Positions 8,280-59,324 of a stretch of 64,000 bases of DNA are shown here, one piece after another; within the stretch, counting starts at the first letter, position 1, and every line of letters starts with the position of its first letter. Under the pieces are notes generated by a model. That model was not told where the DNA came from, searched no databases, and was given only the letters and a program-made list of their open reading frames with translations. Origin of the DNA: Candidatus Nealsonbacteria bacterium (GTDB taxonomy: Bacteria; Patescibacteriota; Minisyncoccia; Minisyncoccales; RBG-13-42-11); assembly GCA_019923655.1 (NCBI GenBank), contig JAHXGL010000002.1, forward strand, positions 2,933 through 66,932, in the 5' to 3' direction. The position numbers were made by a program, and so were the translations under genes.

Positions 8280-8503
8280 AATTTTTCTTTTTCCAGCATT
8301 TCTCCTTCAATGTCTTGGGCTTCTTTTTTAATCTGAAGCCCGCTCTTTCTTAGTTTTTCTTTTCTGTTTTTAGTCTTAACTTTAGTCTTCCAAACCGAGC
8401 GCTCAACACTTTGAGTGCTTGGTTTGGAAACTTTAAGCGACTCGTTTGGTTTAATTTCAATTTTCGTTTCCAAATTCACATTCGTTTCCAAATCCGTTTC
8501 CAA
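8240..8503 (-). other. out-of-frame continuation of ftsZ carrying the conserved FtsZ C-terminal peptide (ETPAFLRRKK)
   Basis: 87-aa ORF overlapping the ftsZ 3' end in a different frame; ends with the FtsA/ZipA-binding consensus (D/E)-x-P-x-F-L-R-R/K. Confidence 0.45.
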
Positions 8504-8790
8504 ACCACGAAGGGGTTTGGAAACGCGGAGTCTTCCAAATCCATCGCGGATTTAGAAACTTTAGTCTTCCGAATCCCTTTGGGAGTGTTCCAAATCCCTT
8601 TGGGATTTGGAAACGAATTCGGAAACGCAGTCTTCTTTTTTTGCTTTATTGTTCCAAATCTGACAAGATTTGGAAAATTTATTTTTTCTCTTTTTCTCTT
8701 TTTCTTTTTTTGGTGCCCATCTTCCCTGTTTTCCAAGTCTTGAAGGGATTTTGAAACGGACTTGGAAACGGACTTGGAAATGGACTTTTC
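8385..8790. repeat. dense block of palindromic hairpin repeats (stem TTCCAAAYC / GRTTTGGAA), at least 8 tandem or nested copies
   Basis: direct sequence inspection; same unit recurs at 9745, 13906, 18851, 30004, 31210, 34801, 51397, 56403, 58645. Confidence 0.85.
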
Positions 8791-13658: not shown

Positions 13659-13961
13659 GGAGTGTGAGATTCGAACCCACATTAGTTGAGCGGGAACAAT
13701 TTGAGTCATATTCAAGGCACGAGGAGTGAAGTGTGCCTTTAGGCACATAAGCGACGAGTAACGAAGAAGATGGCTCAAATTGACCCGCCCCAAGGGGAAG
13801 CTCAAAAATGGATGATTTCTTTGTTGCTCCTCCTCAAGGTGCTTGTCAGCACGATTTCGTTGTCGCGCCTTGAAATCATCTCATTTTTGAGCTTCTCAAT
13901 CTAAAGTTTCCAAATCCCTTTGGGATTTGGAAGACTGATGTGGGTTCGGATCTCACACTCC
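13659..13961. mobile_element. 303-bp element bounded by 24-bp terminal inverted repeats (GGAGTGTGAGATYCGAACCCACAT) that mimic a tRNA T-arm/acceptor; contains one hairpin-repeat copy
   Basis: left TIR 13659-13682 and right TIR 13938-13961 differ at one base (T/C, 23/24 identical when reverse-complemented); element lies exactly between the rpsI stop and the Cas4-like start. Confidence 0.45.
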
Positions 13962-16550: not shown

Positions 16551-17033
16551 TTATACCCTTCTCGCTTTGACCGGCCGACATCCATTATGGGGAATAGGGG
16601 TAATGTCTTTAATTGAAATGATGTCTATTCCTCGAGCCACCAAAGACCTGATAGCTGATTCCCGACCACTGCCAATTCCTTTTACTAAAATAACTACTTT
16701 AGTAATTCCAATTTTCTTAATTGTTTGCGATATCGCCTCGGCTACCTTAGAAGCAGCGAACGGAGTGGCTTTTTTGGCTCCCTTAAAACCAACACTGCCA
16801 GCGCTCATCCAAGCCAAAACATTTCCCTGAACATCAGTTAAACTAATAATAGTATTATTATAAGAAGAAGAAATGCAAACCCTTGCCTTTTTAACTTTTT
16901 TAGCGGCTTGTTCGGCTTCTCCTTTAATCTTTGCCTCTACTTTTCCAAGTTCGTTTGGGGATTGGAGGGCTTCCCTGCCTCTTTCTTTTAACAATTCTTC
17001 TTCGGTTTGAGCGATAATTCGTTTTTTACCCAT
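16551..17033 (-). CDS. rpsK: 30S ribosomal protein S11 (with ~40-aa N-terminal extension)
   Basis: ISSSYNNTIISLTD...MSAGSVGFKGAKKATPFAA S11 core. Confidence 0.9.
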   Translation of the reverse strand: MGKKRIIAQTEEELLKERGREALQSPNELGKVEAKIKGEAEQAAKKVKKARVCISSSYNNTIISLTDVQGNVLAWMSAGSVGFKGAKKATPFAASKVAEAISQTIKKIGITKVVILVKGIGSGRESAIRSLVARGIDIISIKDITPIPHNGCRPVKARRV

Positions 17034-17034
17034 A

Positions 17035-17424
17035 TTATTTCGGAGCCGGCGCAGCTCTCTTTCCCGACCCGATAGTTCTTCTAATATTTCCTCTTATTGT
17101 TCTACTATTGGTCTTTGTTCTTTGTCCTCTTGCAGGCAATCTTTTAATGTGACGAATTCCCCGCCAAGCGCTTATATCTTTTAATCTTTTAATATCCTTT
17201 ATCCGTTCCCGCCGCAATTCTCCTTCAATCTTACATTTCTTTTCAATAACTTCTTTAAGTTGGGAAATTTGTTGCGGAGTTAATTCTATTGCCTTAAGGG
17301 AAAAATCAATCTTTGCCTCGTCTAAAATTTTCCTGCTCAAAGAACGACCAATGCCATAAATATAAGTCAATGCAATAATTATTTGTTTATTTTCAGGGAT
17401 ATTTGTCCCGGCAATTCTCGGCAT
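17035..17424 (-). CDS. rpsM: 30S ribosomal protein S13
   Basis: MPRIAGTNIPENKQIIIALTYIYGIG N-terminus. Confidence 0.9.
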   Translation of the reverse strand: MPRIAGTNIPENKQIIIALTYIYGIGRSLSRKILDEAKIDFSLKAIELTPQQISQLKEVIEKKCKIEGELRRERIKDIKRLKDISAWRGIRHIKRLPARGQRTKTNSRTIRGNIRRTIGSGKRAAPAPK

Positions 17425-17462
17425 AAATTTTCCAAATCTTGTCAGATTTGGAACAATAATCT

Positions 17463-17859: not shown

Positions 17860-19278
17860 TTAGTCAAGTTCAAACCTTAATTTAATTTCAATTTTGTCTA
17901 AATCTTCAGGCGCTCTATCCACCCAGAATGGCCAAAACTTTGGACTGGCTCTAATAATATCTGGCTTTGCTTCCAAAAAATCTTTAGTTTCATACAACGA
18001 CTTTCCCTTAACCGTATTTTCTAAAATCAGAATATTAATGTAGGGATAAATTTTTGCGGCAGCTTCCAAGGCAAGACTCATTTTACCCTGGTCCAAATCA
18101 AAGTCTGTTAAAGAATAATCTATTCTTAAACTCGGCTGATGAATTTGTTTGGTTTCAGGAATTTGGGTCTTAATAAATTCTATGGCAAAATCTTTTAAGT
18201 TTTGTTCTTTGAAAATTAAAGTTTTTGACTCAACTTTAACCTGAAAATTAAAATTTTCCATTTCCATTCCCGGCTTAGCCAAAGAAAAGGTTTCAATAAT
18301 TTCGGTCTGAATTGCCTGGTCAAAGAAAACAAACCCCATTTGCTCTTTGGTTTTTATTTTATTTTCAAAAAAAGCTCGGCTTTCTTTTTTCGCTCTTTCG
18401 CTCAAAATGTTTTTTGCTTTCTCTAAATCTTGTTCCGTCACCTGAATCATTTCTCTGGAAAAACCGCCTGTCATTGATTCAAAAGATTCAGCGTAAAAAT
18501 TAACAAAAAGCGGGGTTCCGACTAATCCCGGAATAGAGAAAGTAGAAGTCCCAATATTATGCCCCTCTCCCGGGACATCGGCAACTACCCTAACATCAAT
18601 ATGTCCGGGTATTATTTTTCCTCTTTCACGACTTTTGCCCGGAATAGTTATTCTGGTCGGCGTTCGGAACACTTTCCCTTCAGCTGATATAAAACGAGTT
18701 CTAGGGATAAAAGATTGAGAAGAAAATGAGTGTTTGTTAAAAACCCTTATTGTTCCTTCAGCTTTTCCCTGTTTTAGAACCTTGGCAGAAGCAGGAAAGA
18801 CATCAGCAACCGTTCTTTTTTCTCTAAAAATTTGGCCGGGAATAACCTTAGTCTTCCAAACCACGAAGGGGTTTGGAAACGAAGTCTTCCAAACCACGAA
18901 GGGATTTGGAAACGAAGTCTTCCAAACCTCTTCAGGTTTGGAAACTTTATTTTCAAAATCAAGTCCTTCTATGCCAATATCAATTTTTAATTCTGTGTTA
19001 AAAGTCTGAATTTCTGTTTTTGGCCAAACTTCTATTACTGCCTTAGGCAGAGTAAAAAAAGCAAGGGCTCCAAGCAAAACTAAAACTGATAATCCTAAAA
19101 TTAGCCATTTTTTATTAAACCCCTGCCTTGGTTTAGCTGTTTTTTTTTCTAAATCTTCTAAGATATTGGCTTCTTTGAAGGGTTTCAAACCCTTTTTGCG
19201 ATCTCGGACACCGGGTTCTAAAATTTGTTCGCGATTTGACGCACAAGGGGGAAAAATGTCAATTACTTTTTTAGTCAT
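17860..19278 (-). CDS. hypothetical membrane-anchored protein (single N-terminal TM) containing three in-frame hairpin-repeat units
   Basis: TM segment WLILGLSVLVLLGALAFF; WKTSFPNPFVV repeated (33-bp period = 11 codons); no family recognised. Confidence 0.5.
   Translation of the reverse strand: MTKKVIDIFPPCASNREQILEPGVRDRKKGLKPFKEANILEDLEKKTAKPRQGFNKKWLILGLSVLVLLGALAFFTLPKAVIEVWPKTEIQTFNTELKIDIGIEGLDFENKVSKPEEVWKTSFPNPFVVWKTSFPNPFVVWKTKVIPGQIFREKRTVADVFPASAKVLKQGKAEGTIRVFNKHSFSSQSFIPRTRFISAEGKVFRTPTRITIPGKSRERGKIIPGHIDVRVVADVPGEGHNIGTSTFSIPGLVGTPLFVNFYAESFESMTGGFSREMIQVTEQDLEKAKNILSERAKKESRAFFENKIKTKEQMGFVFFDQAIQTEIIETFSLAKPGMEMENFNFQVKVESKTLIFKEQNLKDFAIEFIKTQIPETKQIHQPSLRIDYSLTDFDLDQGKMSLALEAAAKIYPYINILILENTVKGKSLYETKDFLEAKPDIIRASPKFWPFWVDRAPEDLDKIEIKLRFELD
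18851..18945. repeat. three tandem hairpin-repeat units (33-bp period) inside a coding sequence
   Basis: gtcttccaaaccacgaaggggtttggaaacgaa x2 plus a variant copy. Confidence 0.85.
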
Positions 19279-30003: not shown

Positions 30004-30036
30004 AGTCTTCCAAATCCATTCGGATTTGGAAACGTA
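30004..30036. repeat. hairpin-repeat copy in the rplP-rpmC intergenic spacer
   Basis: gtcttccaaatccattcggatttggaaacg. Confidence 0.8.
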
Positions 30037-34695: not shown

Positions 34696-35376
34696 TTAAC
34701 TTTTCGTGGTTTTCTTATTTTGCTCATTTGCTTGTTTTTCCTGCCCTTGTATTTTGGTTTTCATTTTTTCTTGTTTTTCGTCTCCAAGCTCCTTTACTTC
34801 GTTTCCAAACCCCTTCGTGGTTTGGAAGACTTCCAAAGGAATTGCTGAAGCAACACTCTCTTCTGGATCTTTAAGAATTTTAACATCGTTAGGAATAACT
34901 AAATCTTTAATCAAAATACTATCTTCAAAAGTTTTTATTTTTTCTATATCTACTTTAATTTCATAAGGAAGATTTTGAGGCAGAGCTTTGACTTCTACTT
35001 CATAGATATTCTTAACCAAGGTTCCGCCTAAATTTTTACAAACTAACGCCTCACCCTCAAAAACCAAAGGAACAACAGCAGTAATCTCTTTATCAAGTTT
35101 TGGCTGGTAAAAATCAATATGAATTATTGCTCCGGTAATAGGGTCTTTTTTTGTTTCATAAATTAGAACCAAAAACTTTTGGTCCTGTACTTCAAGAGAA
35201 ATTAAAGAAGACTCTCCGGCTTGTTTATAAACATTTTCAAATTCTTTTAAGTTTACTTCCAAAGCTTGATTTTTGATTTTTGGTCCATACAAAACCGCTG
35301 GCAAAATTTCTTTTTCCCTTAAAATCTGTGTTTTCTTGCCCATATCTTTTCGTGTTTTAGCTGATAAACTAATCAT
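34696..35376 (-). CDS. rplY: 50S ribosomal protein L25 / general stress protein Ctc, with in-frame hairpin-repeat insertion in the C-terminal tail
   Basis: N-terminal L25 motif ILPAVLYG; C-terminal EVFQTTKGFGNEV encoded by the palindrome at 34801-34830. Confidence 0.8.
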   Translation of the reverse strand: MISLSAKTRKDMGKKTQILREKEILPAVLYGPKIKNQALEVNLKEFENVYKQAGESSLISLEVQDQKFLVLIYETKKDPITGAIIHIDFYQPKLDKEITAVVPLVFEGEALVCKNLGGTLVKNIYEVEVKALPQNLPYEIKVDIEKIKTFEDSILIKDLVIPNDVKILKDPEESVASAIPLEVFQTTKGFGNEVKELGDEKQEKMKTKIQGQEKQANEQNKKTTKS

Positions 35377-36501: not shown

Positions 36502-36520
36502 AATATTTATTGTTCATTAT

Positions 36521-36625
36521 AATTTGTAAGAAATCCTAGCGTTATTTACACTTTGCTCGGCAACGAAATCTTCAAACTACCGGCTGTTCTTTGTCCCAGC
36601 GGACAAAGCCAGCCTGCGTTCTCGG
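36521..36625. repeat. degenerate partial copy of the 233-bp MITE (core ACCGGCTGTT-hairpin-AGCCTGCGTTCTCGG) in the ppsA-fbp spacer
   Basis: alignable to MITE positions ~60-140; the hairpin stem differs (ctttgtcc/ggacaaag versus aaaatc/gatttt) but pairing is retained. Confidence 0.6.
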
Positions 36626-36640
36626 ATTTTTATTTTCTTT

Positions 36641-36680
36641 TTCCCTTTTTTTTAAAGAAAAAAGGAAAAAGAAAAACCAT
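36641..36680. terminator. AT-rich inverted-repeat hairpin (ctttttccttttttt/aaaaaaggaaaaag) downstream of the ppsA stop
   Basis: near-perfect palindrome followed by T-runs on the transcribed strand. Confidence 0.45.
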
Positions 36681-36807
36681 GCTAAAAATCCTCCGAAAGC
36701 TATTTTGAAGATTTGTTGCCTCGCTTAAAATTAAAACCTGTAAACAACACTGCTGATTCTTACATATAATTATAACAAACTAAATAATCCTGTCAAATCC
36801 GTTGTGC

Positions 36808-39263: not shown

Positions 39264-40493
39264 TTATACAATATATTTCTGAAGAATGTTTGGAATTTTA
39301 ATACTTCCATCTTTTTGCTGATAGTTTTCAATAATAGCGATTAAAGACCTGGGAATGGCAAAAACGGTTCCGTTTAAGGTGTGAACAAATTCTAATTTTT
39401 TGGTTTTAGAATCGCGATAGCGAATGCTTAAACGTCTTGCCTGAAAATCAGTGCAATTTGAAGTAGAGTGGGTCTCTCGATAAATGCCTTGTCCGGGCAT
39501 CCAGGTTTCAATATCATAAGTGCTGGCAGAGGGCCTTCCAATATCTCCGGTACAAAGATGAACCACTCTATATGGAAGCTCTAAGTCATTCATTAATTTT
39601 TTCTCTATGTCCAATAAATGCTTGTGCTCTTTTTTTGAATCTTCTGGTTTGCAAAAAACAAACATTTCTATTTTATCAAACTGATGAACCCTTAAAATGC
39701 CCTTGGTGTCTTTGCCAGAAGCGCCTGCTTCCCGCCGAAAACAAGTGGAGAAGCCAACATATCTTTTAGGTAATTCTTTCTCTTTGAAAATTTCATCAGC
39801 ATGCAGAACTCCTATTGACTGCTCGGAAGTGCCAACTAAATATAAATCATCTTGCGGTAAATAATATGCCTCTTCTTTATCTGCTTGTTCCAAATAACCC
39901 ATTCCTTTAGCTGCGTCCGCTTTCAGCATTACCGGTGGAATTATTGGTATAAATCCCTGTTTTGACAAAGTATCAAAGGCAAAGTTTATTAAAGCGAATT
40001 CTATTAGGACAGCATCATTTTTCAAATAACCAAACCGGGTACCAGAAACTTTAGCCGCTCTTTTAACATCTATTAAATCCAATTTAGTCGCGATTTCCAA
40101 ATAATCTTTTGGCTTGAAATCAAATTTTGGTTTTACGCCTATCTCCTCTAAAATTAGATTGTCTTTTTCATCTTTTCCAGCCGGCACTTCATCCAAAGGC
40201 AAATTAGGAATCTGAAGCATTAAAGCGTTAAAATCTTTTTTAGTTTTTTCTAATTTTGGTTCTATTTTTTTAATCTCTTTTTTTATTTTTTTTGCCTCCT
40301 GAATCTCGTCTTTTCCTAATTTGCGTTGTTTTGCTTTCAAACTTTCTACTCTTTGCAGATATTCTTTTTTCTTTTTATCAAAATCCAAAAGCTTGTCAAT
40401 ATCAACTTCAACCTGCTTTTTTTTACAACCCTGTTTCACCTTATCCGGATAATTTCTTATGAATTTTATATCAAGCATAGAACAAGGCAACAA
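39264..40493 (-). CDS. serS: serine--tRNA ligase
   Basis: class II motifs FRREAGASGKDTKGILRVHQF, GSGLAVGR-type; likely start at the internal Met (MLDIKFIRNYP). Confidence 0.9.
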   Translation of the reverse strand: MLPCSMLDIKFIRNYPDKVKQGCKKKQVEVDIDKLLDFDKKKKEYLQRVESLKAKQRKLGKDEIQEAKKIKKEIKKIEPKLEKTKKDFNALMLQIPNLPLDEVPAGKDEKDNLILEEIGVKPKFDFKPKDYLEIATKLDLIDVKRAAKVSGTRFGYLKNDAVLIEFALINFAFDTLSKQGFIPIIPPVMLKADAAKGMGYLEQADKEEAYYLPQDDLYLVGTSEQSIGVLHADEIFKEKELPKRYVGFSTCFRREAGASGKDTKGILRVHQFDKIEMFVFCKPEDSKKEHKHLLDIEKKLMNDLELPYRVVHLCTGDIGRPSASTYDIETWMPGQGIYRETHSTSNCTDFQARRLSIRYRDSKTKKLEFVHTLNGTVFAIPRSLIAIIENYQQKDGSIKIPNILQKYIV

Positions 40494-40513
40494 GGAGACT
40501 TCGTTGCCGAGCG

Positions 40514-41977
40514 TTATTTTTCTTTTGGCCGCATTGTTGGAAATAATATTACTTCTCTTAAGCTGTGAGAATCAGTCAATAAGGCTACCAATCTATCTAT
40601 TCCCATGCCGAAACCGGTAGCCGGCGGCATACCATATTCTAAGGCTTCTAAAAAGTCTTCATCCATTCTTTGAGCTTCTTCTAATCCTGATTTAAAAAAT
40701 TTCTCTTGTTCCTTAAATCTTTTTCTTTGTTCAATTGGATCATTAAGCTCTGAAAAAGCATTGCCCAGCTCGCAGCCAGCAACCACTAATTGAAAGTTAG
40801 CTAATTTCCCGGGATTGCGTTCAAGCTGTTTGGCTAATGGCTGAAAACCTATTGGATGATGAATTATAAAAGTAGGTTCCCAAATTTTTGGACGACAAAA
40901 TTTTTTATAAATCTCGTCAGCAATTTCTGTTTTTCCTTCTCCTTTTTTAATCTTCACGCCCATTTGGCGCGCCTCTTTTTTAAGGGCAGTTAAATGAATC
41001 TCTTCAAAATTAATTTTTGTATATTTTTTAAGTCCTTGCGTAAATTCAATTCTTTGCCAGGGAGTTTTGAAATCAATCTCTTTTCCTTGATATTCAATCT
41101 TTAAGCCGCCAAACACTTTCTTTAATAAATTTTCAAACATCTGTTCCGCTAATCTCATCATATCTTTGTAGTCGGCAAAAGCCCAATAAAAATCAAGCAT
41201 TGTAAACTCTGGGTTGTGAAATCTGTCCATACCTTCGTTTCTAAACATTCTGCCGATTTCATAAACTTTTTCAAAACCGCCAACTAAAAGCCGTTTTAAG
41301 TAAAGCTCGTGAGCAATTCTAAGATATAAATTAATGTTAAGAGTGTTTAACCGGGTTTTGAATGGCTTGGCTTTTGTCCCTCCGTAAATTGGCTGTAAAA
41401 CAGGAGTTTCCACCTCTAAAAATCCTTGGTCTTTCAAAAAAGCTCCTATTTCTTGAATAATTTTTGAACGAATTTCAAATTTCTTTTTTGCGTCTTTGTT
41501 AAAAATTAAATCCAGATATCGCTTCCGATACCTTTCTTCAATATCTTTTAAGCCATGCCATTTGGTCGGCAAAGGCAAAAGGGCTTTTGCCAGCATTTTA
41601 TAATCTGCCGCTTCAATTGTCTTTTCTCCTTTTTTGGTCTTAAACAAAATTCCTCTTATTTCAATAAAATCGCCGATATCAAAATTACCTAAGAAAAAAT
41701 TATAATTCTTTTCTCCCAATCTATTCTTTCTAAAATAGGCCTGAATTAATCCTTTGCCATCTTCAATGTCCAAAAAAACTGAACCGCCGTGTTCTCTTAA
41801 AGACCTAATTCTACCGACTAAAACTATTTCTTTTTTCGCCGAGGCTAATTTATTAAAATTTTTAAGGGCTTCTATTATCTTGTGAGTCCTTTTAGTTTCC
41901 TCGGGATAGGGTAAAACCCCGGCTCTCTTAATCGCTTCTAATTTTTTAAGCCGTATTTTTCTTAATTCGCTGGTCAT
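40514..41977 (-). CDS. lysS: lysine--tRNA ligase (class II)
   Basis: MFRNEGMDRFHNPEFTMLDFYWAF motif 2 region and anticodon-binding OB fold. Confidence 0.9.
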   Translation of the reverse strand: MTSELRKIRLKKLEAIKRAGVLPYPEETKRTHKIIEALKNFNKLASAKKEIVLVGRIRSLREHGGSVFLDIEDGKGLIQAYFRKNRLGEKNYNFFLGNFDIGDFIEIRGILFKTKKGEKTIEAADYKMLAKALLPLPTKWHGLKDIEERYRKRYLDLIFNKDAKKKFEIRSKIIQEIGAFLKDQGFLEVETPVLQPIYGGTKAKPFKTRLNTLNINLYLRIAHELYLKRLLVGGFEKVYEIGRMFRNEGMDRFHNPEFTMLDFYWAFADYKDMMRLAEQMFENLLKKVFGGLKIEYQGKEIDFKTPWQRIEFTQGLKKYTKINFEEIHLTALKKEARQMGVKIKKGEGKTEIADEIYKKFCRPKIWEPTFIIHHPIGFQPLAKQLERNPGKLANFQLVVAGCELGNAFSELNDPIEQRKRFKEQEKFFKSGLEEAQRMDEDFLEALEYGMPPATGFGMGIDRLVALLTDSHSLREVILFPTMRPKEK

Positions 41978-46167: not shown

Positions 46168-46352
46168 ATCTATAATCTTTATGATTTTTGTTTTGACGCG
46201 GGATATAAAGCTTTTAACGATTATTAATTGCTAGCCAAAAAATTGCTGATGATTTATTAGTACTGCTCGGCTTAACCCATTACTGAGCTTACACCTACAG
46301 CCTATCAAGGTCGTCATCTTCGACCAATCTAAGAGTCCTAATCTTGGAGCCT

Positions 46353-46383
<31 letters not shown>

Positions 46384-46572
46384 AGTTCCCGACTTAGCTA
46401 CCCAGCAATGCTCCTGGCGGAACAGCTGGTACACCAGAGGTCGATTCAGCCTGATCCTCTCGTACAAAGGCCAACCCTCCTCAAGACTCAAACGCCTGCG
46501 GTAGATAGAGACCAACCTGTCTCACGACGGTTTGAACCCAGCTCACGTACCACTTTAATTGGCGAACAGCCA

Positions 46573-46615
<43 letters not shown>

Positions 46616-46622
46616 CACTAAA

Positions 46623-47518
46623 TTTCTATTATTACTAATAGCGTAGACTATACCTTTATCTAGAACATCCATTCTAGACACCAACGTTTTATAGTACTTA
46701 ACGCACTATCTTCATCCCGCGTAATGCGGAAATCTAGTCGTTACGGGGTCGCGAAAACCTATTTTATACATCATCGAAGGGATGATGTATGGACGTATGA
46801 CATTGGTTAATTTTTTCGTTTCTTCTTGGTTACAATACATCCTGTATCCTTTATCGCGATCGCGATAATATCGGATCTGAATGTTGAAAATGTTCTCGAA
46901 ACATTTTTGCAGAAAAATTATTTCTGGCAAAGAAAAAGAATAAGTGCTTATGTCAATTTTGCCTTTGGAATATGAACCGTCGTCCATAATCCAGACGGCT
47001 AAAGCGAAAGGGGTTAATTCTTTTCCGATTTCAAATGGAATAATCTTCCTTCCATTTTTATAACCTTCTCTCTTGTAGAATTTTTTGTAGATTTCAGTAA
47101 ACAACGGGTGTCTTATCGTTCTGAACCACCATGATTTTTCATATTTATTGCCTTTTTCATCATATCTGTAACTCATTTTAGGCTCAGTAAATACAAACGG
47201 TTTTAGTATTTGATATTTCCAATCAACATACTTTTTTTGAACTAACCCGTGATCTACTTTGAAATTGACATTTTGAGCTCCTTTGCCCAAACGCATCGTT
47301 CCATCGCCAAGAAGAGATCCAATGATTAATGATCTCTGTTTCGAATTTAACCTCAGAGATTTTTTAATCAGAATCCACTTTTTGTGCCAATGTTTATTTT
47401 CGCAACTTCCCACGGTGTTGACCATATATTTAGCTAATTATAGCAAATTTACTGGGTCTTTATAAATATATGGCTTTCTCCGTTATGAGTTGGTTTATCC
47501 TCGACATTCGGCTACTTT
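46623..47518 (-). mobile_element. group I intron (inferred) in 23S domain V, between CACCTCGAT and GTCGGCTC (E. coli ~2500 region), carrying a LAGLIDADG ORF
   Basis: exon sequence is contiguous with E. coli 23S when 46623-47518 is removed. Confidence 0.65.
46712..47425 (-). CDS. LAGLIDADG homing endonuclease (double-motif)
   Basis: motifs LIIGSLLGDGTM and LAVWIMDDGS. Confidence 0.85.
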   Translation of the reverse strand: MVNTVGSCENKHWHKKWILIKKSLRLNSKQRSLIIGSLLGDGTMRLGKGAQNVNFKVDHGLVQKKYVDWKYQILKPFVFTEPKMSYRYDEKGNKYEKSWWFRTIRHPLFTEIYKKFYKREGYKNGRKIIPFEIGKELTPFALAVWIMDDGSYSKGKIDISTYSFSLPEIIFLQKCFENIFNIQIRYYRDRDKGYRMYCNQEETKKLTNVIRPYIIPSMMYKIGFRDPVTTRFPHYAG

Positions 47519-47749
47519 ATCGAGGTGCCGAACAGGGCCGTTAATGTGAACTTGCAGGCCCTACCAGCCTGTTATCCCCGGGGTAGCTTTTATCTGATGA
47601 TCCTCCCCATTTCTATAAATAAGGGTCGGTTCACTAAGTTCTGGTTTCCCATCTGCGCGGCATATCCGCCTTGCAGTTAAGCCGGCTTATCCCTTTACAG
47701 GACCGCTCCGATTTCCATCCGGAGCTAGCCGACCTTATAAACGCCTCCA

Positions 47750-48406
47750 CTACTCTTTAGGCAATTCTGTTAACCTTAAAACTCTTGGAATTTTATATTT
47801 CATCGAAGAAATTATGTGTGGTTTTATCAATGCGATAAACTTTTCTCCAGATTTTCCTCCTAAATAAATTTGTTTTCCATTTTTCTCTTTTCTTGTTGTA
47901 CTGCTAATTCCGAATTTAACCTTCAATACCTCTTGAAGTCTTTTCACATCATCCTCTCTAAATCCTTGGGTGTTTAAAAATAAACCCTTGTGTTTTCTCG
48001 ATTTAATTGATCCGTCATCCATATACCAAATCGCTAATCCTAAAGGAGTAATATCCTTTTCTAAGTCATTCGGTATAATTTTCTTTCTTTTTCTGTAAAA
48101 TTTTTCTTGGAATTCTCCTAACAATCTATGACCATAAGTAATGAATCCATAATTCAGGTAAGTTTTATTCCAAACTTTCTTTCTCTTTGATTTTGGTTTA
48201 CTCCTTATCCAATTCCGAAATTCCTCATAAATCCAGTCAACATATTCTTTCTGTTTGTAGCTGTGTTCTACTTTTAATCTTCCTAGTATCGGTGTATACA
48301 ATCTTTCTAAATGACCATCTCCTAAAATCAAACCAATTAAGATTTCTTTTTGTCTTTGACTTAGAGAGAGTTTACTTTTATATTCTTCGATTTCTTTACT
48401 TCGCAT
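47750..48406 (-). CDS. LAGLIDADG homing endonuclease (double-motif)
   Basis: motifs LIGLILGDGHL and LAIWYMDDGS. Confidence 0.85.
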   Translation of the reverse strand: MRSKEIEEYKSKLSLSQRQKEILIGLILGDGHLERLYTPILGRLKVEHSYKQKEYVDWIYEEFRNWIRSKPKSKRKKVWNKTYLNYGFITYGHRLLGEFQEKFYRKRKKIIPNDLEKDITPLGLAIWYMDDGSIKSRKHKGLFLNTQGFREDDVKRLQEVLKVKFGISSTTRKEKNGKQIYLGGKSGEKFIALIKPHIISSMKYKIPRVLRLTELPKE

Positions 48407-48690
48407 AATTTCAGAGTTTAAGTTTCGGATTAGTTAGCGGGCACTAAAACTAACCTTGCCGAATCTTTAGGTCGCCCTAAAGTTCAGACTGTATCACTAC
48501 CCCTTGAAATAATTCTATATCTCAAAGGGACTCGACATACAGTCGTTGAGGGCATCCGCCTTTGGCGGGTTTCCCTGCTGATTGTCCGCACCAAAGAATT
48601 ATTACTTAATTTTATCAAAATTAAGTATCTTTGGATACTCGGATGTTCCAGCATATTAGTCGAGTTTGCTCTAAAGATTACTCTTTAGAG
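47751..48690 (-). mobile_element. second group I intron (inferred) in 23S, upstream of the CCTAAAGAGTA block, carrying a LAGLIDADG ORF
   Basis: exon blocks ...GTAGTTTAAGTGGGGC and GCCTAAAGAGTAGTGGAGG are separated by ~940 bp; boundaries approximate. Confidence 0.55.
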
Positions 48691-51396
48691 GCCCCATAAA
48701 TTAAGGCAAGTGCCCCACTTAAACTACCTACCAGACACTGTTTTTCGCCAATTAAGGCAAAGTTAGAACAAAGACCTTGAAAGACGGGTGTTTCATTGGC
48801 GTCCTGCTCTCAAAGAACAGAACTCCCCGCTACACTACACATTCAAAGCCAAAATTCAATATCTGGCTATAGTAAAGCTCCCGGGGTCTTTTCGTCTAGC
48901 CGCAGGTAACCGGCATCTTTACCGGTATTGCATTTTCACCGAGCTCCTCGTTGAGACAGTTCCCAAGTCGTTAAGCCTTTCATGCGGGCCGGAACTTACC
49001 CGGCAAGGGATTACGCTACTTTAAGACGGTTATAGTTACCGCCGACGTTCACTGGCGCTTCATTCAGTCAGCGCCAAACACATAAACTATGCGCTTGACA
49101 CCGCCAAATTTAACGTTCCAGCACTGGTCAGGCCTCAGCCCCTATACATCCTCTTACGAGTTAAGCAGGGACCTGTGTTTTTGATAAACAGTCGCCTGGG
49201 ATACTTTTGTTGCAGCCCAGCCTTGTGCAAAGCACAAGGTCAGGCAGTCCTTATTGCGAACTTACGGACACTTTTTTGCCGAGTTCCTTAACGAGGTTTC
49301 ACTCGTTCACCTTGGCACATTTACGCCTACCCACCTGTGTCGGTTTACGGTACGGACTAAACGCATAACTAACTCCTAAGAAGTTTTTCTGGGAAGCTTG
49401 CTCATTTGAGTTCATCCCACCGTAGCAGGACTTCCTGTTAGCCCTTGAAAAATCTCAAGCTAACAACAGAAATCCAATAATCTGCTCAAATTACTAAACT
49501 CCGTCACTCCTTAGAATTATGCGCTCAGGGGCCGGAATATTAACCGGCTGTCCATCATCCAGGCCATTCGGCCAAAGACTAAGGACCGCCTAACCCTTGG
49601 TTGATTGTCATTGCCAAGGAAACCTTAGGTTTTCGGTGTCCCGGGCTCTCACCGGGATTGCGGTTACTCATGCCAACATTCTCACTCCTTAGCGCTCCAC
49701 CAAACCTCACGGTTTGACTTCGCAGCACTAAAGACGCTCCCCTACCACCCATGAAATAAAAATATCTCACGGGTCCTTATCTTCGGTACTAAGCTTAGTC
49801 CCGGTAATCTTCGGCGCGAAATTCCTTAATTAGTAAGCTATTACGCACTTTTTAAAGGATAGCTGCTTCTAAGCTAACCTCCTAACTATCTTTGGAAATT
49901 CACTTCCTTAAAAACACTTAGCTCTTCGCAACCCTTTTAATAAAAGAGTTGGAACCTGCCTTTCAGCAGTAGTTTAGGGACCTTAGATAAAGATCTGGGC
50001 TGTTTCCCTTTTGACTATGGAGCTTAGCCCCCACAGTCTAACTCCCCGCCAAAATTTTTTCGCCATTCGGAGTTTGATTGGAAAGACTAGGCAAAGCCCA
50101 CGTAATTCCATTCAGTGCTCTACCTGCGAAAATTTAGGCGAAGGCTAGCCCTAAAGCTATTTCGGGGAGAACCAGCTATTACCAAGCTCGATTAGCTTTT
50201 CACTTCTTACCACAGCTCATCCCAGAGTATTGCACGGCTCACGGGTTCGGGCCTCCTCTCGACTTTCGTCGAGATTCACCCTGGCCATGGCAAGCTCGCT
50301 TGGCTTCGGGTTCTCTATTTCCAGTCTTCCTGATAAATCAGGGGTCGCGCTATTAACACTTGCTTTCGCTTTGCCTTCGCCCCAGAAGGGCTTAGACAAA
50401 CTGAAAATAAAGACTCGTTGGCTCGTTCTGCAAAAAGCACGTCATCACCCCGCCGAAGCGGAGCTCTGACTCTTTGTAGGCGTGATGGTTTCAGGTTCTA
50501 TTTCACCGCCCTTCCGGGCTACTTTTCACCTTTCCCTCACGGTACTGGTTCACTATCGGTGAGATTAAGTATTTAGCCTTGGCTGATAGTTCAGCCTGCT
50601 TCCTTCAAGGTTTTCATTCCTTGAAGTACTCAAGTATAACAGTTAGGAGCATGAAATCGTTTTCGCTTACAGGACTATTACCTTCTTTGGTCAGGCTTTC
50701 CATCCTTGTTTAGCTAACGAAATTTCATTTTGATAGACTCCTTTTGAAGCAAAAGCTCCAAAACACCATTAACTTACAACCCCCAGCCACACCTCGCTAC
50801 GCTCGGTATTCACTTAAACGTAAAGCGTAAAACGTAAAATGCAAAACAACAGTTCAAAATTCAAAACAAAATGTTTTAAGTTTTAGGTTGTTATTTTACG
50901 CTTTTCGCTTTTAGTTTTTCATTTAAGTTCGTACCAAGCGCAAAGAGGTATGGCTAGGTTTGGGCTATTCCCTTTTCGCTCGCCGCTACTAAGGGAATAT
51001 CCTTGTGCGGAGCACAAGGCTTGTTTTCTTTTCCTCCGCTTACTGAGATGTTTCACTTCAGCGGGTTCGCCGCCGCGCAGAGCGCGGCTTGCCGTGGTTT
51101 ACACGGCAGGGTTTCCCCATTCGGAAATCCCCGGATCAAAGGTTGGTAGCCACCTCCCCGAGGCTTATCGCAAGCACCCTACGTCCTTCATCGCCTTAAT
51201 CTCCCAAGGCATCCTCCATCCGCCCTTAAAATGCAATTTGGCATACCAATTTTGTAAAACAAAATTGATAAGTTTGGCTAGCAATTAATAATCGCTATGT
51301 TTACCCTGTTAAATAATTTGCTTCGCAAATTAAAAATCAAAGATTTTTATTTAATAGGGTGAATCCTGTTAAATAATTTTGCCTTCGGCAAAATTG

Positions 51397-51520
51397 CTCG
51401 GTTTGGAATACTTCGTTTCCAAACCAAGCATTCAAAGTGTTGAGTGCTCGGTTTGGAATACTTCGTTTCCAAACCAAGCATTCAAAGTGTTGAGTGCTCG
51501 GTTTGGAATACTGCGGAACA
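51397..51520. repeat. about 2.3 tandem copies of a 57-bp unit in the 23S leader, each containing a long-loop variant of the hairpin repeat
   Basis: gctcggtttggaatacttcgtttccaaaccaagcattcaaagtgttgagt repeated. Confidence 0.8.
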
Positions 51521-51770
51521 GCATTTAACAGGGTGAATTTTTAATGTTCTTTCCTTTCTCTGCTAATTATCAATTAATTGGTAATTAGCAGAAAAAAGAA
51601 AAATCGCTTTTAGAAAGCGATTTTTCAGAACATAAACAAAAATTCTGGAATTTAACCGCTTTCCTTCTTTAGAATGGTTTTATTTTTTCTCATGCTTAAT
51701 TTAGAAACGCGGGATTCAAACCAACATATCAGTCCAAACTCGCATTCTTAATATTAACAGAATAAAAATC

Positions 51771-53650: not shown

Positions 53651-54327
53651 AGAATAAATCTTCCGTTTTGTTCATCCCGAATCACTTTTCCATCCTGAAG
53701 GGTAATTACCCTTTTTCCCAATGAATTAATTATATTTTTATTATGGGTAACTAAAATTACCGTAGTGCCCAAAGTGTTAATTTTTAATAAAAGCCGTGTA
53801 ATGTCCAAAGCATGATAAGGATCAAGGTTGCCAAGCGGTTCGTCGGCCAAAATAACCTCGGGCCGATGAATCAATGCCCGGGCAATAGCCACTCTCTGCC
53901 TTTCGCCTCCGGAAAGTTCAGCCGGGAAACTATTAGCTCGTTCAGTAAGGCCGACTATTTCCAGAACTCCTGCTACGTCTCTGGTAATCTCAAAATCTGA
54001 AACTCCAATCACTTCCATTATATAAGCAATGTTTTCATATGTTGTTTTAGACGGAATCAATTTATAATCTTGAAAAACAGCTCCAATTTTTCGACGCAAC
54101 TCCGACACTTTTGTTGATTTGAAACGGCAAATATCCTGATCGTTTAAAAAAATTCGGCCTTGGTTTGGTTTTTCTTCAGCCAAAAGAAGTTTTAATAAAG
54201 TGGTCTTGCCTGCTCCCGACCTTCCGATTATAGAAACAAATTCTTTTGACCCAACCTCAAAAGAAACATTGTCTACCGCTTTTATGTCAGGAGGATAAAT
54301 TTTAGAAACATTCTGAAATTTTATCAT
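53647..54327 (-). CDS. ftsE: cell division ATP-binding protein FtsE
   Basis: Walker A GRSGAGKTT, ABC signature LSGGERQRVAIARAL, Walker B ILADEP. Confidence 0.9.
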   Translation of the reverse strand: MIKFQNVSKIYPPDIKAVDNVSFEVGSKEFVSIIGRSGAGKTTLLKLLLAEEKPNQGRIFLNDQDICRFKSTKVSELRRKIGAVFQDYKLIPSKTTYENIAYIMEVIGVSDFEITRDVAGVLEIVGLTERANSFPAELSGGERQRVAIARALIHRPEVILADEPLGNLDPYHALDITRLLLKINTLGTTVILVTHNKNIINSLGKRVITLQDGKVIRDEQNGRFIL

Positions 54328-54337
54328 TTATATTATT

Positions 54338-54570
54338 GGGTAAAGTCTGAAAAACGGACCTATTTGTTCGTAATTTAGCTTAAAGCATCAGAAGCTCAGC
54401 AATCAAGTTTCAAGTCACCGGCTGTTAAAATCCCAGCGAGATTTTACAGCCTGCGTTCTCGGCTTGTTGTCCCTCACTTTGTTCGGGAACCATGCCAACA
54501 AGCCTGCGAAAGCTGCCTTGAAACTTATTGCCTCACTTCTGAAATCGGTCCGGGAAATCGAACTTTACCC
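54338..54570. mobile_element. 233-bp MITE-like element with terminal inverted repeats GGGTAAAGT...ACTTTACCC, flanked by 7-bp direct repeat TATTATT
   Basis: near-identical to 56154-56387; inserted precisely between the prfB stop (54573) and the ftsE start (54327). Confidence 0.8.
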
Positions 54571-54572
54571 TA

Positions 54573-55670
54573 TTATTTGTTGGCTTGGCGAATTTCAGCC
54601 TCAATAAATTCATCTAAGTTTCCGTCTAATACTTTTTCAACATCTGATTTCTCAATCCCTGTTCTTAAATCTTTGACTAATTTATAGGGATGTAAAACAT
54701 AAGACCTTGTTTGATTTCCCCAGCCAACAGAAACATTTTTCCCCTTAAATTGCTTTATTTCTTTTTCAGCTTTCTCTTTTTCTTTCTGAAAAAGACGGCT
54801 AATCAGAACCTTCATCGCCTTATTTTTGTTTAACCCCTGAAGTCTTTCTTTTTGACAGGAAACCTTGACCCCGGAAGGTAAATGAGTTATTCTAACCGCT
54901 GTTTCCCGTTTGTTGACATACTGACCGCCCGGACCAGAAGCGCGATAATAATCAATTTTTAAGTCCTCGGGCTTAATGTTAATTTCCGCCTGTTTAATTT
55001 CAGAAATCTCCGGCAGGACTTCAACTAAAGCAAAAGAAGTATGACGAAGAGACCTTGAAGAAAAAGGAGAAATACGCACTAAACGATGGACTCCGGTTTC
55101 TTTTTTCAAAAAACCAAAAGCATATTTCCCTTTAATTTCTAATATGGCTGTTTTTGTTCCGATTCTTCCTTCTGGTCCGCCGGCCTCGCCAAAAGATTGG
55201 TCCAAAATTGCGGTTTTAAGTCCCTTAAAATGACAATATCTCTCATACATTCGCAAAAGCATTGTCGCCCAATCTTGGGCGTCTATACCTCCGGCTCCAG
55301 CATAAATTGACAAAATAGCATTGTCTTTATCGCGCTCAAAGGAAAACCAAACTTGAAATTCTTTGTTTTTAACTCGGCTTTCTAAAATCTGAAGTTTTTC
55401 TTCTATTTGTTTTTCTTTTTGGTCTTCTTTTTCTCTGCTTAGCCCTTCTAAATCATTTAATTCTTTTTTAAGTTCAATAAAATCTCTTATTTCTTTTTTC
55501 AAATCTGCCAGCTCCTGACTAATTTTGATTGCTTGCTCTTGCTTGCGCCAAAAATCCTGTCTCTGAATCTGTTTTTCAATTTCTTCAATTCTTTTTTCTT
55601 TTCTCTTTATGTCAAAGACAGTCCTCAAGATTGAGGATTTTCTTATTGAGGTCTTTAAGGTTTTGAACAA
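54573..55670 (-). CDS. prfB: peptide chain release factor 2 (single frame, no programmed frameshift)
   Basis: SPF tripeptide motif and GGQ motif (SGPGGQYVN). Confidence 0.85.
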   Translation of the reverse strand: MFKTLKTSIRKSSILRTVFDIKRKEKRIEEIEKQIQRQDFWRKQEQAIKISQELADLKKEIRDFIELKKELNDLEGLSREKEDQKEKQIEEKLQILESRVKNKEFQVWFSFERDKDNAILSIYAGAGGIDAQDWATMLLRMYERYCHFKGLKTAILDQSFGEAGGPEGRIGTKTAILEIKGKYAFGFLKKETGVHRLVRISPFSSRSLRHTSFALVEVLPEISEIKQAEINIKPEDLKIDYYRASGPGGQYVNKRETAVRITHLPSGVKVSCQKERLQGLNKNKAMKVLISRLFQKEKEKAEKEIKQFKGKNVSVGWGNQTRSYVLHPYKLVKDLRTGIEKSDVEKVLDGNLDEFIEAEIRQANK

Positions 55671-55685
55671 ATTTGGTCATCATTA

Positions 55686-56147
55686 TCAACGAGCAAAATG
55701 AGCAAAAGCTCTGTTCGCTTCAGCCATCCGACGAATATCTTCTTTCTTTTTGACAGCCGCTCCGCTGTTATTCGCGGCATTAATCAATTCTTGAGATAAT
55801 TTTTCCTTCATTGACTTTCCTTTTCTCGCTTTTGCCGAAAGGATTATCCAGCGAGCCGCTAAAGCCATCCTTCTTTTATCTTTTACCTCTCTTGGCACCT
55901 GATATGTTGCCCCGCCCACTCTTTTAGGCTTTACCTCTAAAACAGGCGCGGCATTTTCAAGCGCTCTTTCAAAAACCCCCAGAGGATCTTTCTTGGTTTC
56001 TTCTTTAATAATATCAAAAGCATTATAAACTATTTTCCTAGCTAGGGCTTTTTTTCCTCGCCGCATTATGTAATTAATAAATTTAGCCACTGCAATATTA
56101 TTATAAACAGGGTCTGGCAAAGTTTGATATTTTGTCTTTTTTTTCAT
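55686..56147 (-). CDS. rpsG: 30S ribosomal protein S7
   Basis: S7 core, position after rpsL. Confidence 0.9.
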
Positions 56148-56153
56148 ATATTT

Positions 56154-56387
56154 GGGTAAAGTCTGAAAAACGGACCTATTTGTTCGTAATTTAGCTTAAA
56201 GCATCAGAAGCTCAGCAATCAAGTTTCAAGTCACCGGCTGTTAAAATCCCAGCGAGATTTTACAGCCTGCGTTCTCGGCTTGTTGTCCCTCACTTTGTTC
56301 GGGAACCATGCCAACAAGCCTGCGAAAGCTGCCTTGAAACCTATTGCCTCGCTTCTGAAATCGGTCCGGGAAATCGAACTTTACCCT
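56154..56387. mobile_element. 234-bp MITE-like element (second copy), flanked by 7-bp direct repeat TATATTT
   Basis: about 98% identical to the 54338-54570 copy; lies between rpsL and rpsG, ending 6 nt from the rpsG start codon. Confidence 0.8.
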
Positions 56388-56402
56388 ATATTTCCAAATG
56401 AA

Positions 56403-56430
56403 GTTTCCAAATCCGTAGGATTTGGAAGAC
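56403..56430. repeat. hairpin-repeat copy in the rpsL-rpsG spacer
   Basis: gtttccaaatccgtaggatttggaagac. Confidence 0.8.
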
Positions 56431-57945: not shown

Positions 57946-58851
57946 CTAGAGAAACCAATTAAAAATATCTCTGCCTAAAAACATTGCAATAAAAGTACCG
58001 GTAACCAAAAAAGGGGCAAAAGGTATTTCGCTTTTTAAGGTTTTTTTGCGCAGAATAATCAATCCCAAGCCAACCAGGGCGCCAATTAAAAAAGCTAAAA
58101 ATAGAGCAACTAAAATATCAGGCCAGCCAAGAATTAAACCCATTAAGATTGCTAGCTTAAAATCGCCAAACCCCATCCACTGACCGCGAGAATGCAAAAT
58201 TATTGCCAGAAAAAATAAAGAGGGCAAAATCCCAAATCCTAAATCCTGAACAAGCCCAAAATCCATTCCCTTTCCATTTTCATTGAGCTGAATCAAAAAT
58301 TTCAATAATTGATAAAAAAGACTTAGCCCAATGGCTGGATAAATAATTTTATCCGGAATAATATAGTGCTTAAGGTCATAAACAAACACAACAATTAAAA
58401 AACAAGAGATGATTAAATAGTAGCTAAAAGACAGCATAGGGCTGGGCTGAAAATAGAAAACCAATAAAAATAGCAATCCGGTTGCCGCTTCTACAAGAGG
58501 ATATTGCCAGGAGATTTTTTTAGAACAATAACGGCATTTTCCTTTAAGAAACCAAAAGCTTAAAATTGGGATTAAATCTATCCAGGATAAAATATGTTTG
58601 CAATCAGGACAATAAGAATGGCCACGCAAAAAACTTCGTCCCTTGTCTTCCACCCCCCCTTCTCTCCTCTGGAGAAGGGGGGATTTGGAAACGTATGTTT
58701 GCGGGACGAATTTGGTTGTCTTAATATGACGTTTTATATAATCAATTTCCAAACGGTAAATCAGACAATTCAAAAAAGAACCAATAATTATTCCAATTAG
58801 AAACAAAATCAAAACCAGAAACATACATTGACTAACTCCTATTAAGGACAA
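57946..58851 (-). CDS. pilD: type IV prepilin peptidase (A24 family) carrying a palindromic insertion in the N-terminal zinc-binding region
   Basis: CPDC...CRYC tetracysteine, catalytic Asp-containing TM core; insertion QRREGGVEDKGRSFL encoded by the palindromic repeat at 58645-58695. Confidence 0.8.
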   Translation of the reverse strand: MSLIGVSQCMFLVLILFLIGIIIGSFLNCLIYRLEIDYIKRHIKTTKFVPQTYVSKSPLLQRREGGVEDKGRSFLRGHSYCPDCKHILSWIDLIPILSFWFLKGKCRYCSKKISWQYPLVEAATGLLFLLVFYFQPSPMLSFSYYLIISCFLIVVFVYDLKHYIIPDKIIYPAIGLSLFYQLLKFLIQLNENGKGMDFGLVQDLGFGILPSLFFLAIILHSRGQWMGFGDFKLAILMGLILGWPDILVALFLAFLIGALVGLGLIILRKKTLKSEIPFAPFLVTGTFIAMFLGRDIFNWFL

Positions 58852-59324
58852 GCAATTAAACTAGCTGGCGCTGCCGCCATATCTCTCACTCCTCTTTCGC
58901 TTGCGGCAACAACTGCTCCTGCTGTTCCAGGAGCAATACCTTCCATTCGCGCCCAAATACAAAATTCTGTAGAACCAACAGGGCTAGCAAAAGCCCGATA
59001 TATGAAGTCGCCAGTATTAGAAGGGTCTAATGGTATAGGATTTAAAATTTCCCCAATTGCAATAGTAGTAAGTCTGTTTCCGGGAGTGGGAGGCGCCGGA
59101 GTTATCGGAGCCGACGTAATCGCCATATATCCCACACCTCTTCGTATATTTATCCTATACATTTCCATAGCGAGGTGAATTGTTCTCATATCAGACCTTC
59201 TACGGGAATTTCTGGCATCTCTTGGAATATCGCCTATAGTAACAAAAACTATTCCCGCTAAAATTCCAATCACCACCACAACAACTAAAAGTTCAATAAG
59301 GGTAAAACCTCTATTTTTATTCAT
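58842..59324 (-). CDS. type IV pilin / pseudopilin
   Basis: class III signal peptide NRGFTLIELLVVVVVIGILA (cleavage G|F, conserved E5). Confidence 0.8.
   Translation of the reverse strand: MNKNRGFTLIELLVVVVVIGILAGIVFVTIGDIPRDARNSRRRSDMRTIHLAMEMYRINIRRGVGYMAITSAPITPAPPTPGNRLTTIAIGEILNPIPLDPSNTGDFIYRAFASPVGSTEFCIWARMEGIAPGTAGAVVAASERGVRDMAAAPASLIACP

Follow-up and report, generated by a model that had tools for sequence, protein, structure and literature searches.

In the window, i.e., the whole stretch of 64,000 nucleotides of Candidatus Nealsonbacteria DNA analyzed here, two minus-strand open reading frames, which the gene tables of related contigs identify as FBPase_3 and PEP synthase, are separated by a spacer at 36502-36807. 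An initial annotation had flagged 36521-36625 within this spacer as a degenerate, diverged partial copy of the MITEs at 54.3 and 56.1 kb, in which a hairpin between conserved motifs is kept by compensatory changes. The hairpin is indeed as described, with the motifs ACCGGCTGTT and CAGCCTGCGTTCTCGG on either side; the homologous hairpin of the MITEs at 54.3 and 56.1 kb (copies 1 and 2) reads TAAAATC-CCAGCGA-GATTTTA, its stem being wholly unlike that at 36589-36608, and both pair. The 15-mer AGCCTGCGTTCTCGG has exactly three exact occurrences in the window (36611, 54448 and 56264), where 0.52 occurrences would be expected even if up to three mismatches were allowed. The spacer therefore contains the same core as the full MITE copies, as had been proposed, but the flagged extent is too narrow: in a whole-spacer alignment, the homology to copies 1 and 2 far exceeds 36521-36625 and spans an entire element, referred to as copy 3. 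Nor is this copy degenerate or partial, since it is intact, carries its own terminal repeats and 7-bp target duplication, and is polymorphic among near-identical strains. The flagged segment is the P2 arm, together with the junction, of a three-way-junction core located in a recently transposed non-coding MITE (Table 1).

Table 1. Coordinates of the features in the window
Feature	Position	Strand	Details
Left target duplication of copy 3	36518-36524		TATAATT, 7 bp
MITE copy 3 (subfamily B)	36525-36764		240 bp; ends TGTAAGAAATCC... and ...GATTCTTACA; one long branched hairpin
Core of copy 3 (P1, P2, P3)	36552-36725	+	cmsearch 125.6 bits, E 4e-39
Flagged segment	36579-36625	+	Junction ACC, P2 base GGCTG/CAGCC, variable P2 upper stem, loop CAGC, conserved TGCGTTCTCGG into P3
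Motif ACCGGCTGTT	36579-36588		Sequence read directly
P2 stem CTTTGTCC/GGACAAAG, loop CAGC	36589-36596 / 36601-36608		Sequence read directly
Motif CAGCCTGCGTTCTCGG	36610-36625		Sequence read directly
P3 arm of copy 3 core	36624-36691	+	Long A+T-rich hairpin; conserved AACCATGC bulge at 36675-36682
Right target duplication of copy 3	36765-36771		TATAATT, 7 bp
Predicted promoter, sigma-70-type consensus match	36769-36796	-	TTGACA, 16 nt, TG-n-TATAAT; 12/12 positions
Mini-element, internally deleted, core 5' end joined to 3' end	40481-40515	-	Covariance model, filters off
MITE copy 1 (subfamily A)	54331-54577		Element 54338-54570; TATTATT on each side
Core of copy 1	54391-54537	+	cmsearch 142 bits
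MITE copy 2 (subfamily A)	56147-56393		Element 56154-56386; 7-bp duplication TATATTT
Core of copy 2	56207-56353	+	cmsearch 144.6 bits
REP-like palindromes	8494-8760, 13906-13936, 16941-16971, 17423-17459, 18850-18945, 30005-30035, 34796-34843, 51395-51544, 56400-56430		

The three MITE copies are short and non-coding, measuring 233 bp (copies 1 and 2) or 240 bp (copy 3), and no open reading frame is conserved between them. Copies 1 and 2 form a 247-nt direct repeat (54327-54573 and 56143-56389) with 98% identity and constitute subfamily A, bounded by the terminal inverted repeats GGGTAAAGT...ACTTTACCC, while copy 3 belongs to subfamily B, bounded by TGTAAGAA...TTCTTACA; in both, the repeats are imperfect further in. 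With these different termini, both subfamilies make 7-bp duplications of A+T-rich targets. All three copies share one fold, in which a single long closing helix leads into a three-way junction with two arms, and their fold z-scores range from -6.1 to -11.4; the stretch 36510-36790 folds more stably on the minus strand (-106.4 kcal/mol, z -11.4) than on the plus strand (-85.2 kcal/mol). The junctions and loops are 100% identical between the two subfamily shells whereas all stems and termini differ, a pattern indicating that the core, rather than the termini, is under purifying selection. With respect to the neighboring genes, copy 1 starts 2 nt past the prfB stop codon (54573-54575, minus strand), and copy 2 sits 6 nt upstream of the rpsG ATG, which moves rpsG 240 nt away from rpsL and from any sequence that formerly lay ahead of the rpsG start.

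Comparison with related loci reveals recent movement of these elements. In L067 and L068, which encode S7 proteins 99% identical to that of the window, the rpsL-rpsG spacer is 47 nt long as against 290 nt in the window, and alignment identifies the empty site of copy 2, TTTGGAAATATATGAAAAAAAAG, in both. The empty-site strains read ...GGAAATATATGAAAA... and the minus strand of the window reads ...GGAAATATA-element-AAATATATGAAAA..., i.e., copy 2 is a clean insertion, the single 7-mer of the empty site being present as a 7-bp duplication in the window. Likewise, L077 and L079 encode an Fbp identical to that of the window, lack copy 3 and show the empty site GGCATAATTATAATGAAC, with a single 7-mer where the window reads ...TTATAATTATA-element-AATTATAATGAAC.... 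Copy 1 is present at the same site in L068, and a REP-like array occupies this site in L067. A second insertion of the copy-3 element type, with different flanks, is found in L004; together with L005 and the three sites in the window, this amounts to five distinct MITE insertion sites, and presence or absence of the element varies among strains whose neighboring proteins are 99-100% identical. The window copies, with terminal inverted repeats, 7-bp duplications (confirmed by empty sites for copies 2 and 3) and multiple polymorphic insertion sites, are active MITEs of two subfamilies, because empty sites exist in sister strains and the same elements occur at other sites; copy 3 is an intact member. 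The initial annotation was thus right in taking the repeats at 54.3 and 56.1 kb for true MITEs, each with a 7-bp duplication and copy 2 with an empty site, and in proposing that a mobile element spreads a structured motif. As to an autonomous partner, the MITE termini were found in MITE copies only, across the window and the fetched loci; no transposase domain was detected in ten candidate open reading frames of the window, a transposase or recombinase whose ends match was likewise not seen beside the loci with inspected gene tables, and a regular-expression search for half-elements around an open reading frame gave too much noise to be informative.

The five known MITE targets are all A+T-rich, and three of the five resemble TATAAT. 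L004 and L005 (QLTW01000397.1 and QLTW01000246.1) are short contigs that carry the MITE subfamilies of the window, although they are binned as Candidatus Psychracetigena formicireducens (phylum Lithacetigenota). The pilin genes of L004 are near-identical to the window open reading frame 58842-59324; the two contigs therefore come from this organism or a close relative, and are probably mis-binned contigs of the Patescibacteria organism.

On the gene strand, the predicted sigma-70 promoter lies directly upstream of copy 3, its -10 box overlapping the target 7-mer. As copy 3 is located directly downstream of this 12/12 match with an extended -10 box, it is probably the 5' leader of the fbp mRNA. 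Judging from the sequence, all three copies are almost certainly transcribed, the transcribed strand being the complement of the one with sense orientation in other genomes. Copy 3 contains no site resembling an intrinsic terminator.

The core is not confined to these MITEs. Scanning a genome collection with the pattern CCGGCTGT-gap-CAGCCTGCGTTCTCGG yielded ten loci, located in a complete Nealsonbacteria genome (3 copies), three Doudnabacteria assemblies (4 loci), another Patescibacteria bin, L004 and L005. A covariance model built from 12 cores, combined with a second pattern scan of metagenomes, extended the set to 65 copies, 58 of them distinct; ten metagenome pattern matches were unrelated coding sequence and were left out. 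The core was found on ~46 metagenome contigs, while viral contigs gave no match. Complete Patescibacteria genomes with the family include CP179888.1. It measures ~145-175 nt in the window copies, and the core-only elements of other genomes (114-148 nt) correspond to the inner part of the window copies without the outer arms. The core is much older and more widespread than the MITEs, being an interspersed element of ~115-190 nt in Patescibacteria. Its junction and loop sequences, ACCGG, CCAGCG, ACCATGC and GCTCGG...CCTCGCT, are fixed, while the stems vary freely yet remain paired. Two forms can be distinguished, one with a long P3 arm bearing the conserved ACCATGC bulge and one with a short P3 arm (in the Doudnabacteria genomes and similar metagenome copies), and in some copies P2 carries insertions of 50-60 nt. 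No copy matches any Rfam 15 family (self-cleaving ribozymes, riboswitches, HEARO, 6S and SRP included) at gathering thresholds. With E values allowed up to 10, scans of the window, of both element types and of eight loci from other genomes return, apart from rRNA and tRNA, only hairpin-type noise far below threshold. No description was found in the literature on repeats, MITEs and RNA motifs of Patescibacteria/CPR, and exact-protein look-ups for serS, lysS and the S7 of the window returned no record.

Two further candidate features of the core were rejected. Hidden coding is discounted, since copies differ in the frame that runs through the invariant block, and only short, unconserved peptides start from the ATG of ACCATGC. 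A pseudoknot joining the P2 loop (AGCGAG) with the 3' end (CUCGCU) would be possible by complementarity, yet the 3'-end variants CACT and TACT have no compensating changes. The core looks modular, in that the P3 base repeats the P1 closing motif CTCGG...CCTC. In several members, moreover, the P3 tip reads as the element 3' end abutted to the 5' end, as in L025 (CCCTCGCT-A-TCGCTCGGG) and in the window (54465-54492 and 56281-56308, CCCTCACT-TT-GTTCGGG), a pattern that could reflect a dimer-like or nested origin. In L039 and L064, solo 3' halves of a divergent core variant (…GGTCCC-AAAAATC-…CCCTCGCT) lie 15-20 nt after full copies, and partial tandem copies therefore occur.

The pairing in the core shows strong covariation. 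In the 58 distinct sequences, 95.7% of the cells form standard pairs as against 74.1% with shuffled partners, and the covariation score is 0.523, compared with 0.142 after shuffling and at most 0.106 when partners are slid by 1-3 columns. The compensatory pairs initially noted are supported by the enlarged set of 65 copies, both sides having changed in 36 of the 39 pairs (58 distinct sequences). The flagged hairpin itself is helix 5 (columns 41-46 with 122-127) of the 65-member alignment, where all six pairs show double changes and 94.5% of the cells are paired, with more than 12 unrelated stem sequences across the family. CCTGCGTTCTCGG was a requirement of both collection scans, as was CGAARGCT of the second, and part of the invariance of these two blocks therefore stems from the search patterns; the copies that only the model detected (L043:13631, L064:539, L044:896 and L046:7702) do vary there. 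ACCGG, CCAGCG, ACCATGC, GCTCGG and CCTCGCT were absent from the metagenome pattern, and their conservation is independent evidence.

In helices under selection as RNA, G-U intermediates are normally abundant. The ~2,100 paired cells of the core include 23 G-U, 36 A-C and 58 other mismatches; G-U being no more common than A-C, there is no wobble signature and no strand asymmetry. Such a pattern would be equally expected of a DNA hairpin, or of copies corrected against each other. The initial annotation had read covariation as a sign of RNA structure; pairing is kept by compensation as it held, but RNA is not implied by pairs that are almost purely Watson-Crick. Two other strand markers were tried and abandoned: wobble asymmetry in the window copies (3-4 G-U on the minus versus 1-2 on the plus strand) involves too few pairs, and the frequent P3 tip CCGCC-TTC-GGCGG pairs in register around a three-nucleotide loop and so does not serve as a UUCG tetraloop marker.

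A further fragment had been reported in the serS-lysS spacer. This fragment exists, although it is more accurately located on the minus strand at 40481-40515, where the unfiltered covariance model scores 18.8 bits (rough E ~0.0015), and the additional GTTATTT ascribed to it is the end of lysS and looks coincidental. The mini-element reads AACGCTCGGCAACGAAGTCTC/CTTGTTGCCTTGTT, the slash marking the joint at which the core interior is gone, and with the flagged copy it shares only the 13-mer GCTCGGCAACGAA (36555-36567). We initially considered it a chance 13-mer (~0.5 expected for a 280-nt query against 128 kb), a view reversed by the unfiltered model search and by the context. The mini-element takes up the whole of the 35-nt lysS-serS spacer and is oriented in sense; it directly adjoins the lysS TAA, overlapping the last two bases of the stop codon, and ends 2 nt before the serS ATG (40476-40478; real start ATGCTTGATATAAAATTC...). 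As this is the canonical placement of the core in other genomes, the lineage, too, once carried a core-only copy.

Outside the window, the core is overwhelmingly in sense orientation. According to a crude ORF caller, the strand with ACCGGCTG is sense to both neighbors in 38 of 51 loci and opposite to both in six, three of which are the window copies. In 30 of 44 cases, the 5' edge of the core falls between -2 and +4 nt of the upstream stop codon, usually reading TAA/TCGCTCGG with the slash at the core boundary, and its 3' end is often 3-15 nt from the next ATG. Around 12 of 50 core-only copies have no TAA or TAG stop codon at the 5' edge, and this share of about a quarter argues against a fixed TAA target. 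Flanking direct repeats of 4-7 bp are not found at core-only copies beyond the control level, and TA occurs within 2 nt of the core 3' end in 28 of 50 copies as against ~15 expected, a mild and not decisive enrichment; the core-only copies thus do not move like the window MITEs. The sense placement would suit a co-transcribed RNA and, equally, strand-specific insertion combined with genome compaction. The genes downstream of the core (among them groEL, gap, rpsP, rplF, rsmH, a response regulator and dnaJ-like genes) belong to no single functional class, in contrast to the one class of downstream gene expected of a riboswitch or gene-specific leader. Between groES and groEL, the core is present in L001 and L080 and absent in L082 (GroES 94% identical). 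Several near-identical core copies occur per genome, and, at one and the same site, stem modules have been exchanged between flanks that remain ~90% identical. Copy number, patchiness, module swaps and the internally deleted relic are typical of a selfish repeat family.

Other sequences also lie in these spacers. In L082, heptamer repeats fill the core-less groES-groEL spacer (10292-10366), and heptamer repeats (ATTCGTAT ATTCGTAA .. ATTCGTAATTCGTAGGG) also lie between the core and the next start codon in L019, L021, L034, L039, L041 and L063; this block may be a promoter, an operator or another repeat family. In L083 (GroES 88% identical), an unrelated G+C-rich insert of 210 nt with several hairpins (10292-10501) occupies the groES-groEL spacer, apparently an insertion hot spot for diverse sequences.

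As to what the core is, we lean, by a small degree, towards a structure-dependent selfish element, a specific strand of which must fold for the element to be propagated or tolerated, and we infer that it is not a host RNA gene. One specific strand would fold and thereby be recognized and moved, or at least be tolerated, which would entail a strand-specific, structure-reading mobilization step for the core; the sense orientation, the stop-codon-flush position, the lack of duplications of at least 4 bp and the near-pure Watson-Crick covariation fit such a step. In the genome studied here, the core would have been packaged between ordinary terminal repeats and would now be moved by a conventional cut-and-paste transposase. 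Once inserted, the element would be co-transcribed with the flanking genes as a hairpin of ~-96 to -98 kcal/mol, and whatever influence it might then have, as RNA, on mRNA processing or translation would follow from the insertion and would not be why the element exists.

A serious, though less likely, rival is that the core is instead a cis-acting structured RNA that serves the host and was merely captured by the MITEs. A sense transcript following the stop codon could stabilize or process the polycistronic mRNA or, alternatively, closing of P1 could bring stop and start codons together, keeping translation of the operon coupled; the strong sense bias, the 5' ends flush with stop codons, the 3' ends often 3-15 nt from an ATG, the strand-asymmetric conserved single-stranded loops, the very strong covariation and the recurrence in highly expressed operons (groES-groEL, rpsH-rplF, upstream of rpsP and gap) all speak for such a role. 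However, G-U pairs make up only ~1% of the cells and are not commoner than A-C, presence at the same site is patchy among close relatives, several near-identical copies with modules shuffled between them occur per genome, the neighboring genes have no common function, and the three window copies lie antisense to genes yet keep the core intact.

Improbable is a reading in terms of double-stranded DNA, by which a dimeric protein, either a transposase or a host factor, would bind the arms as inverted sites, and both arms would change along with its specificity without any single-stranded fold. This would account for covariation confined to Watson-Crick pairs with no strand asymmetry, and the outer arms of the window copies do act as classical terminal inverted repeats with target duplications. 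Yet the upper stems of P2 and P3 comprise more than 12 unrelated sequences with no conserved positions, which makes a sequence-reading protein unlikely; the conserved positions are the unpaired, non-palindromic ones, and the conserved UC/UC mismatch in P1 renders the two ends non-equivalent. Finally, as only three copies are visible in the window itself, one might take the segment for what decay has left of the 54-kb and 56-kb MITE, and its hairpin match for a coincidence of two short A+T-rich palindromes; this is extremely improbable and effectively ruled out by the full-length homology, copy 3's own target duplication, the empty sites in sister strains, the second insertion site in L004 and the family-wide covariation.

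We also tentatively put forward a conjecture: the core may be a new, Patescibacteria-specific class of functional folded nucleic acid, either a mobilization substrate or a codon-bridging RNA device, with the recurring CUCGG...CCUC (at the P1 base, the P3 base and, mirrored, at some P3 tips) as its recognition unit. As a mobilization substrate, the core would be the single-strand substrate of an undescribed strand-specific enzyme; as an RNA device, ~150 nt inserted between stop and start codons would loop itself out so that translation stays coupled.

Among known repeats, the nearest analogues in behavior are Correia, ERIC and REP-type repeats and palindromic elements derived from IS200/IS605. 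In general character, Correia (Neisseria), ERIC/IRU (enterobacteria) and RUP/BOX (pneumococcus) are likewise small, non-coding, multi-copy and intergenic, and are imperfect palindromes co-transcribed as long hairpins, strain-variable and without a transposase of their own. Beyond these traits, the window copies have terminal inverted repeats as well as target duplications, the latter of 7 bp in contrast to the TA of Correia. Unlike in those families, the part kept across lineages here is the internal branched core and not the termini, two subfamilies with different termini share one core, and this core spans class-level diversity within Patescibacteria, lying elsewhere stop-codon-flush and in one orientation. 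Palindrome-associated transposable elements (PATE) and REP/REPIN elements of the IS200/IS605 type (HUH, Y1) resemble what is proposed for the core in other respects: a folded single strand is recognized, insertion is strand-specific and without target duplication, just as core-only copies lack a repeat of at least 4 bp, and stems are free to vary provided that they are paired. They differ in having separate subterminal hairpins and a fixed target of 4-5 nt, whereas the core is a three-way junction with a closing helix that pairs both ends, about a quarter of the core-only copies have no common 5' flank, and the window copies make 7-bp duplications; no TnpA or RAYT gene was seen in the 2-20-kb pieces of host genomes.

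Integron attC sites are also imperfect hairpins located directly after an upstream stop codon in the same orientation, with the structure kept and a branched terminal structure possible. However, the core lacks the R''/R' core sites (RYYYAAC...GTTRRRY), cassette genes and integrase that define attC: its neighbors are housekeeping genes, the inspected gene tables contain no integrase, the R-box consensus RYYYAAC/GTTRRRY is not kept (P1 is GGCAAC/GTTGCC in some copies and GGTCT/AGACC or GGGAT/ATCCC in others), and nothing in attC sites corresponds to the long invariant sequences of the junction. The MIRUs of mycobacteria, too, are repeats in operon spacers that are oriented with transcription and abut the upstream stop and downstream start codons, but they are tandem, with short coupled open reading frames and no conserved fold, whereas the core family has no conserved reading frame. 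The window copies are MITEs, and no other family compared fits in full.

Patescibacteria have tiny, tightly packed genomes in which mobile DNA and known regulatory RNAs are usually taken to be scarce. Here, an unannotated repeat family is widespread in Patescibacteria, matches a classical structured RNA in the strength of its covariation, sits inside the essential operons rpsL-rpsG, groES-groEL and rpsH-rplF, and continues to move in at least one population. A role of the fold as a transposition substrate would point to an undescribed mobilization system in Patescibacteria; as an RNA device, the fold would be a new intercistronic element. The covariance model obtained from the family can be used for annotating Patescibacteria genomes, and the insertion polymorphisms are strain markers that already expose mis-binned contigs.

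Two other features of the window deserve mention. The 23S rRNA gene (46250-51225, minus strand) contains large insertions, such that its Rfam alignment falls into three pieces, skipping 941 nt and 161 nt. The insertions look intron-type because the open reading frames 46712-47425 and 47750-48406 within them are LAGLIDADG_2 homing endonucleases (E ~1e-44); intron-type insertions have been reported in CPR rRNA genes. The named S7 proteins closest to that of the window are from Nealsonbacteria (74% identity), and with the 23S insertions this points to a Parcubacteria-like member of the Patescibacteria. A second repeat family consists of REP-like palindromes of 31-33 nt, AGTCTTCCAAAyC-loop-GrTTTGGAAAC, with variable loops and often in tandem. 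These palindromes differ between strains, and the L067 array mentioned above lies in the prfB-ftsE spacer, where the window has copy 1; in L067, the prfB reading frame extends a few codons into the REP-like array.
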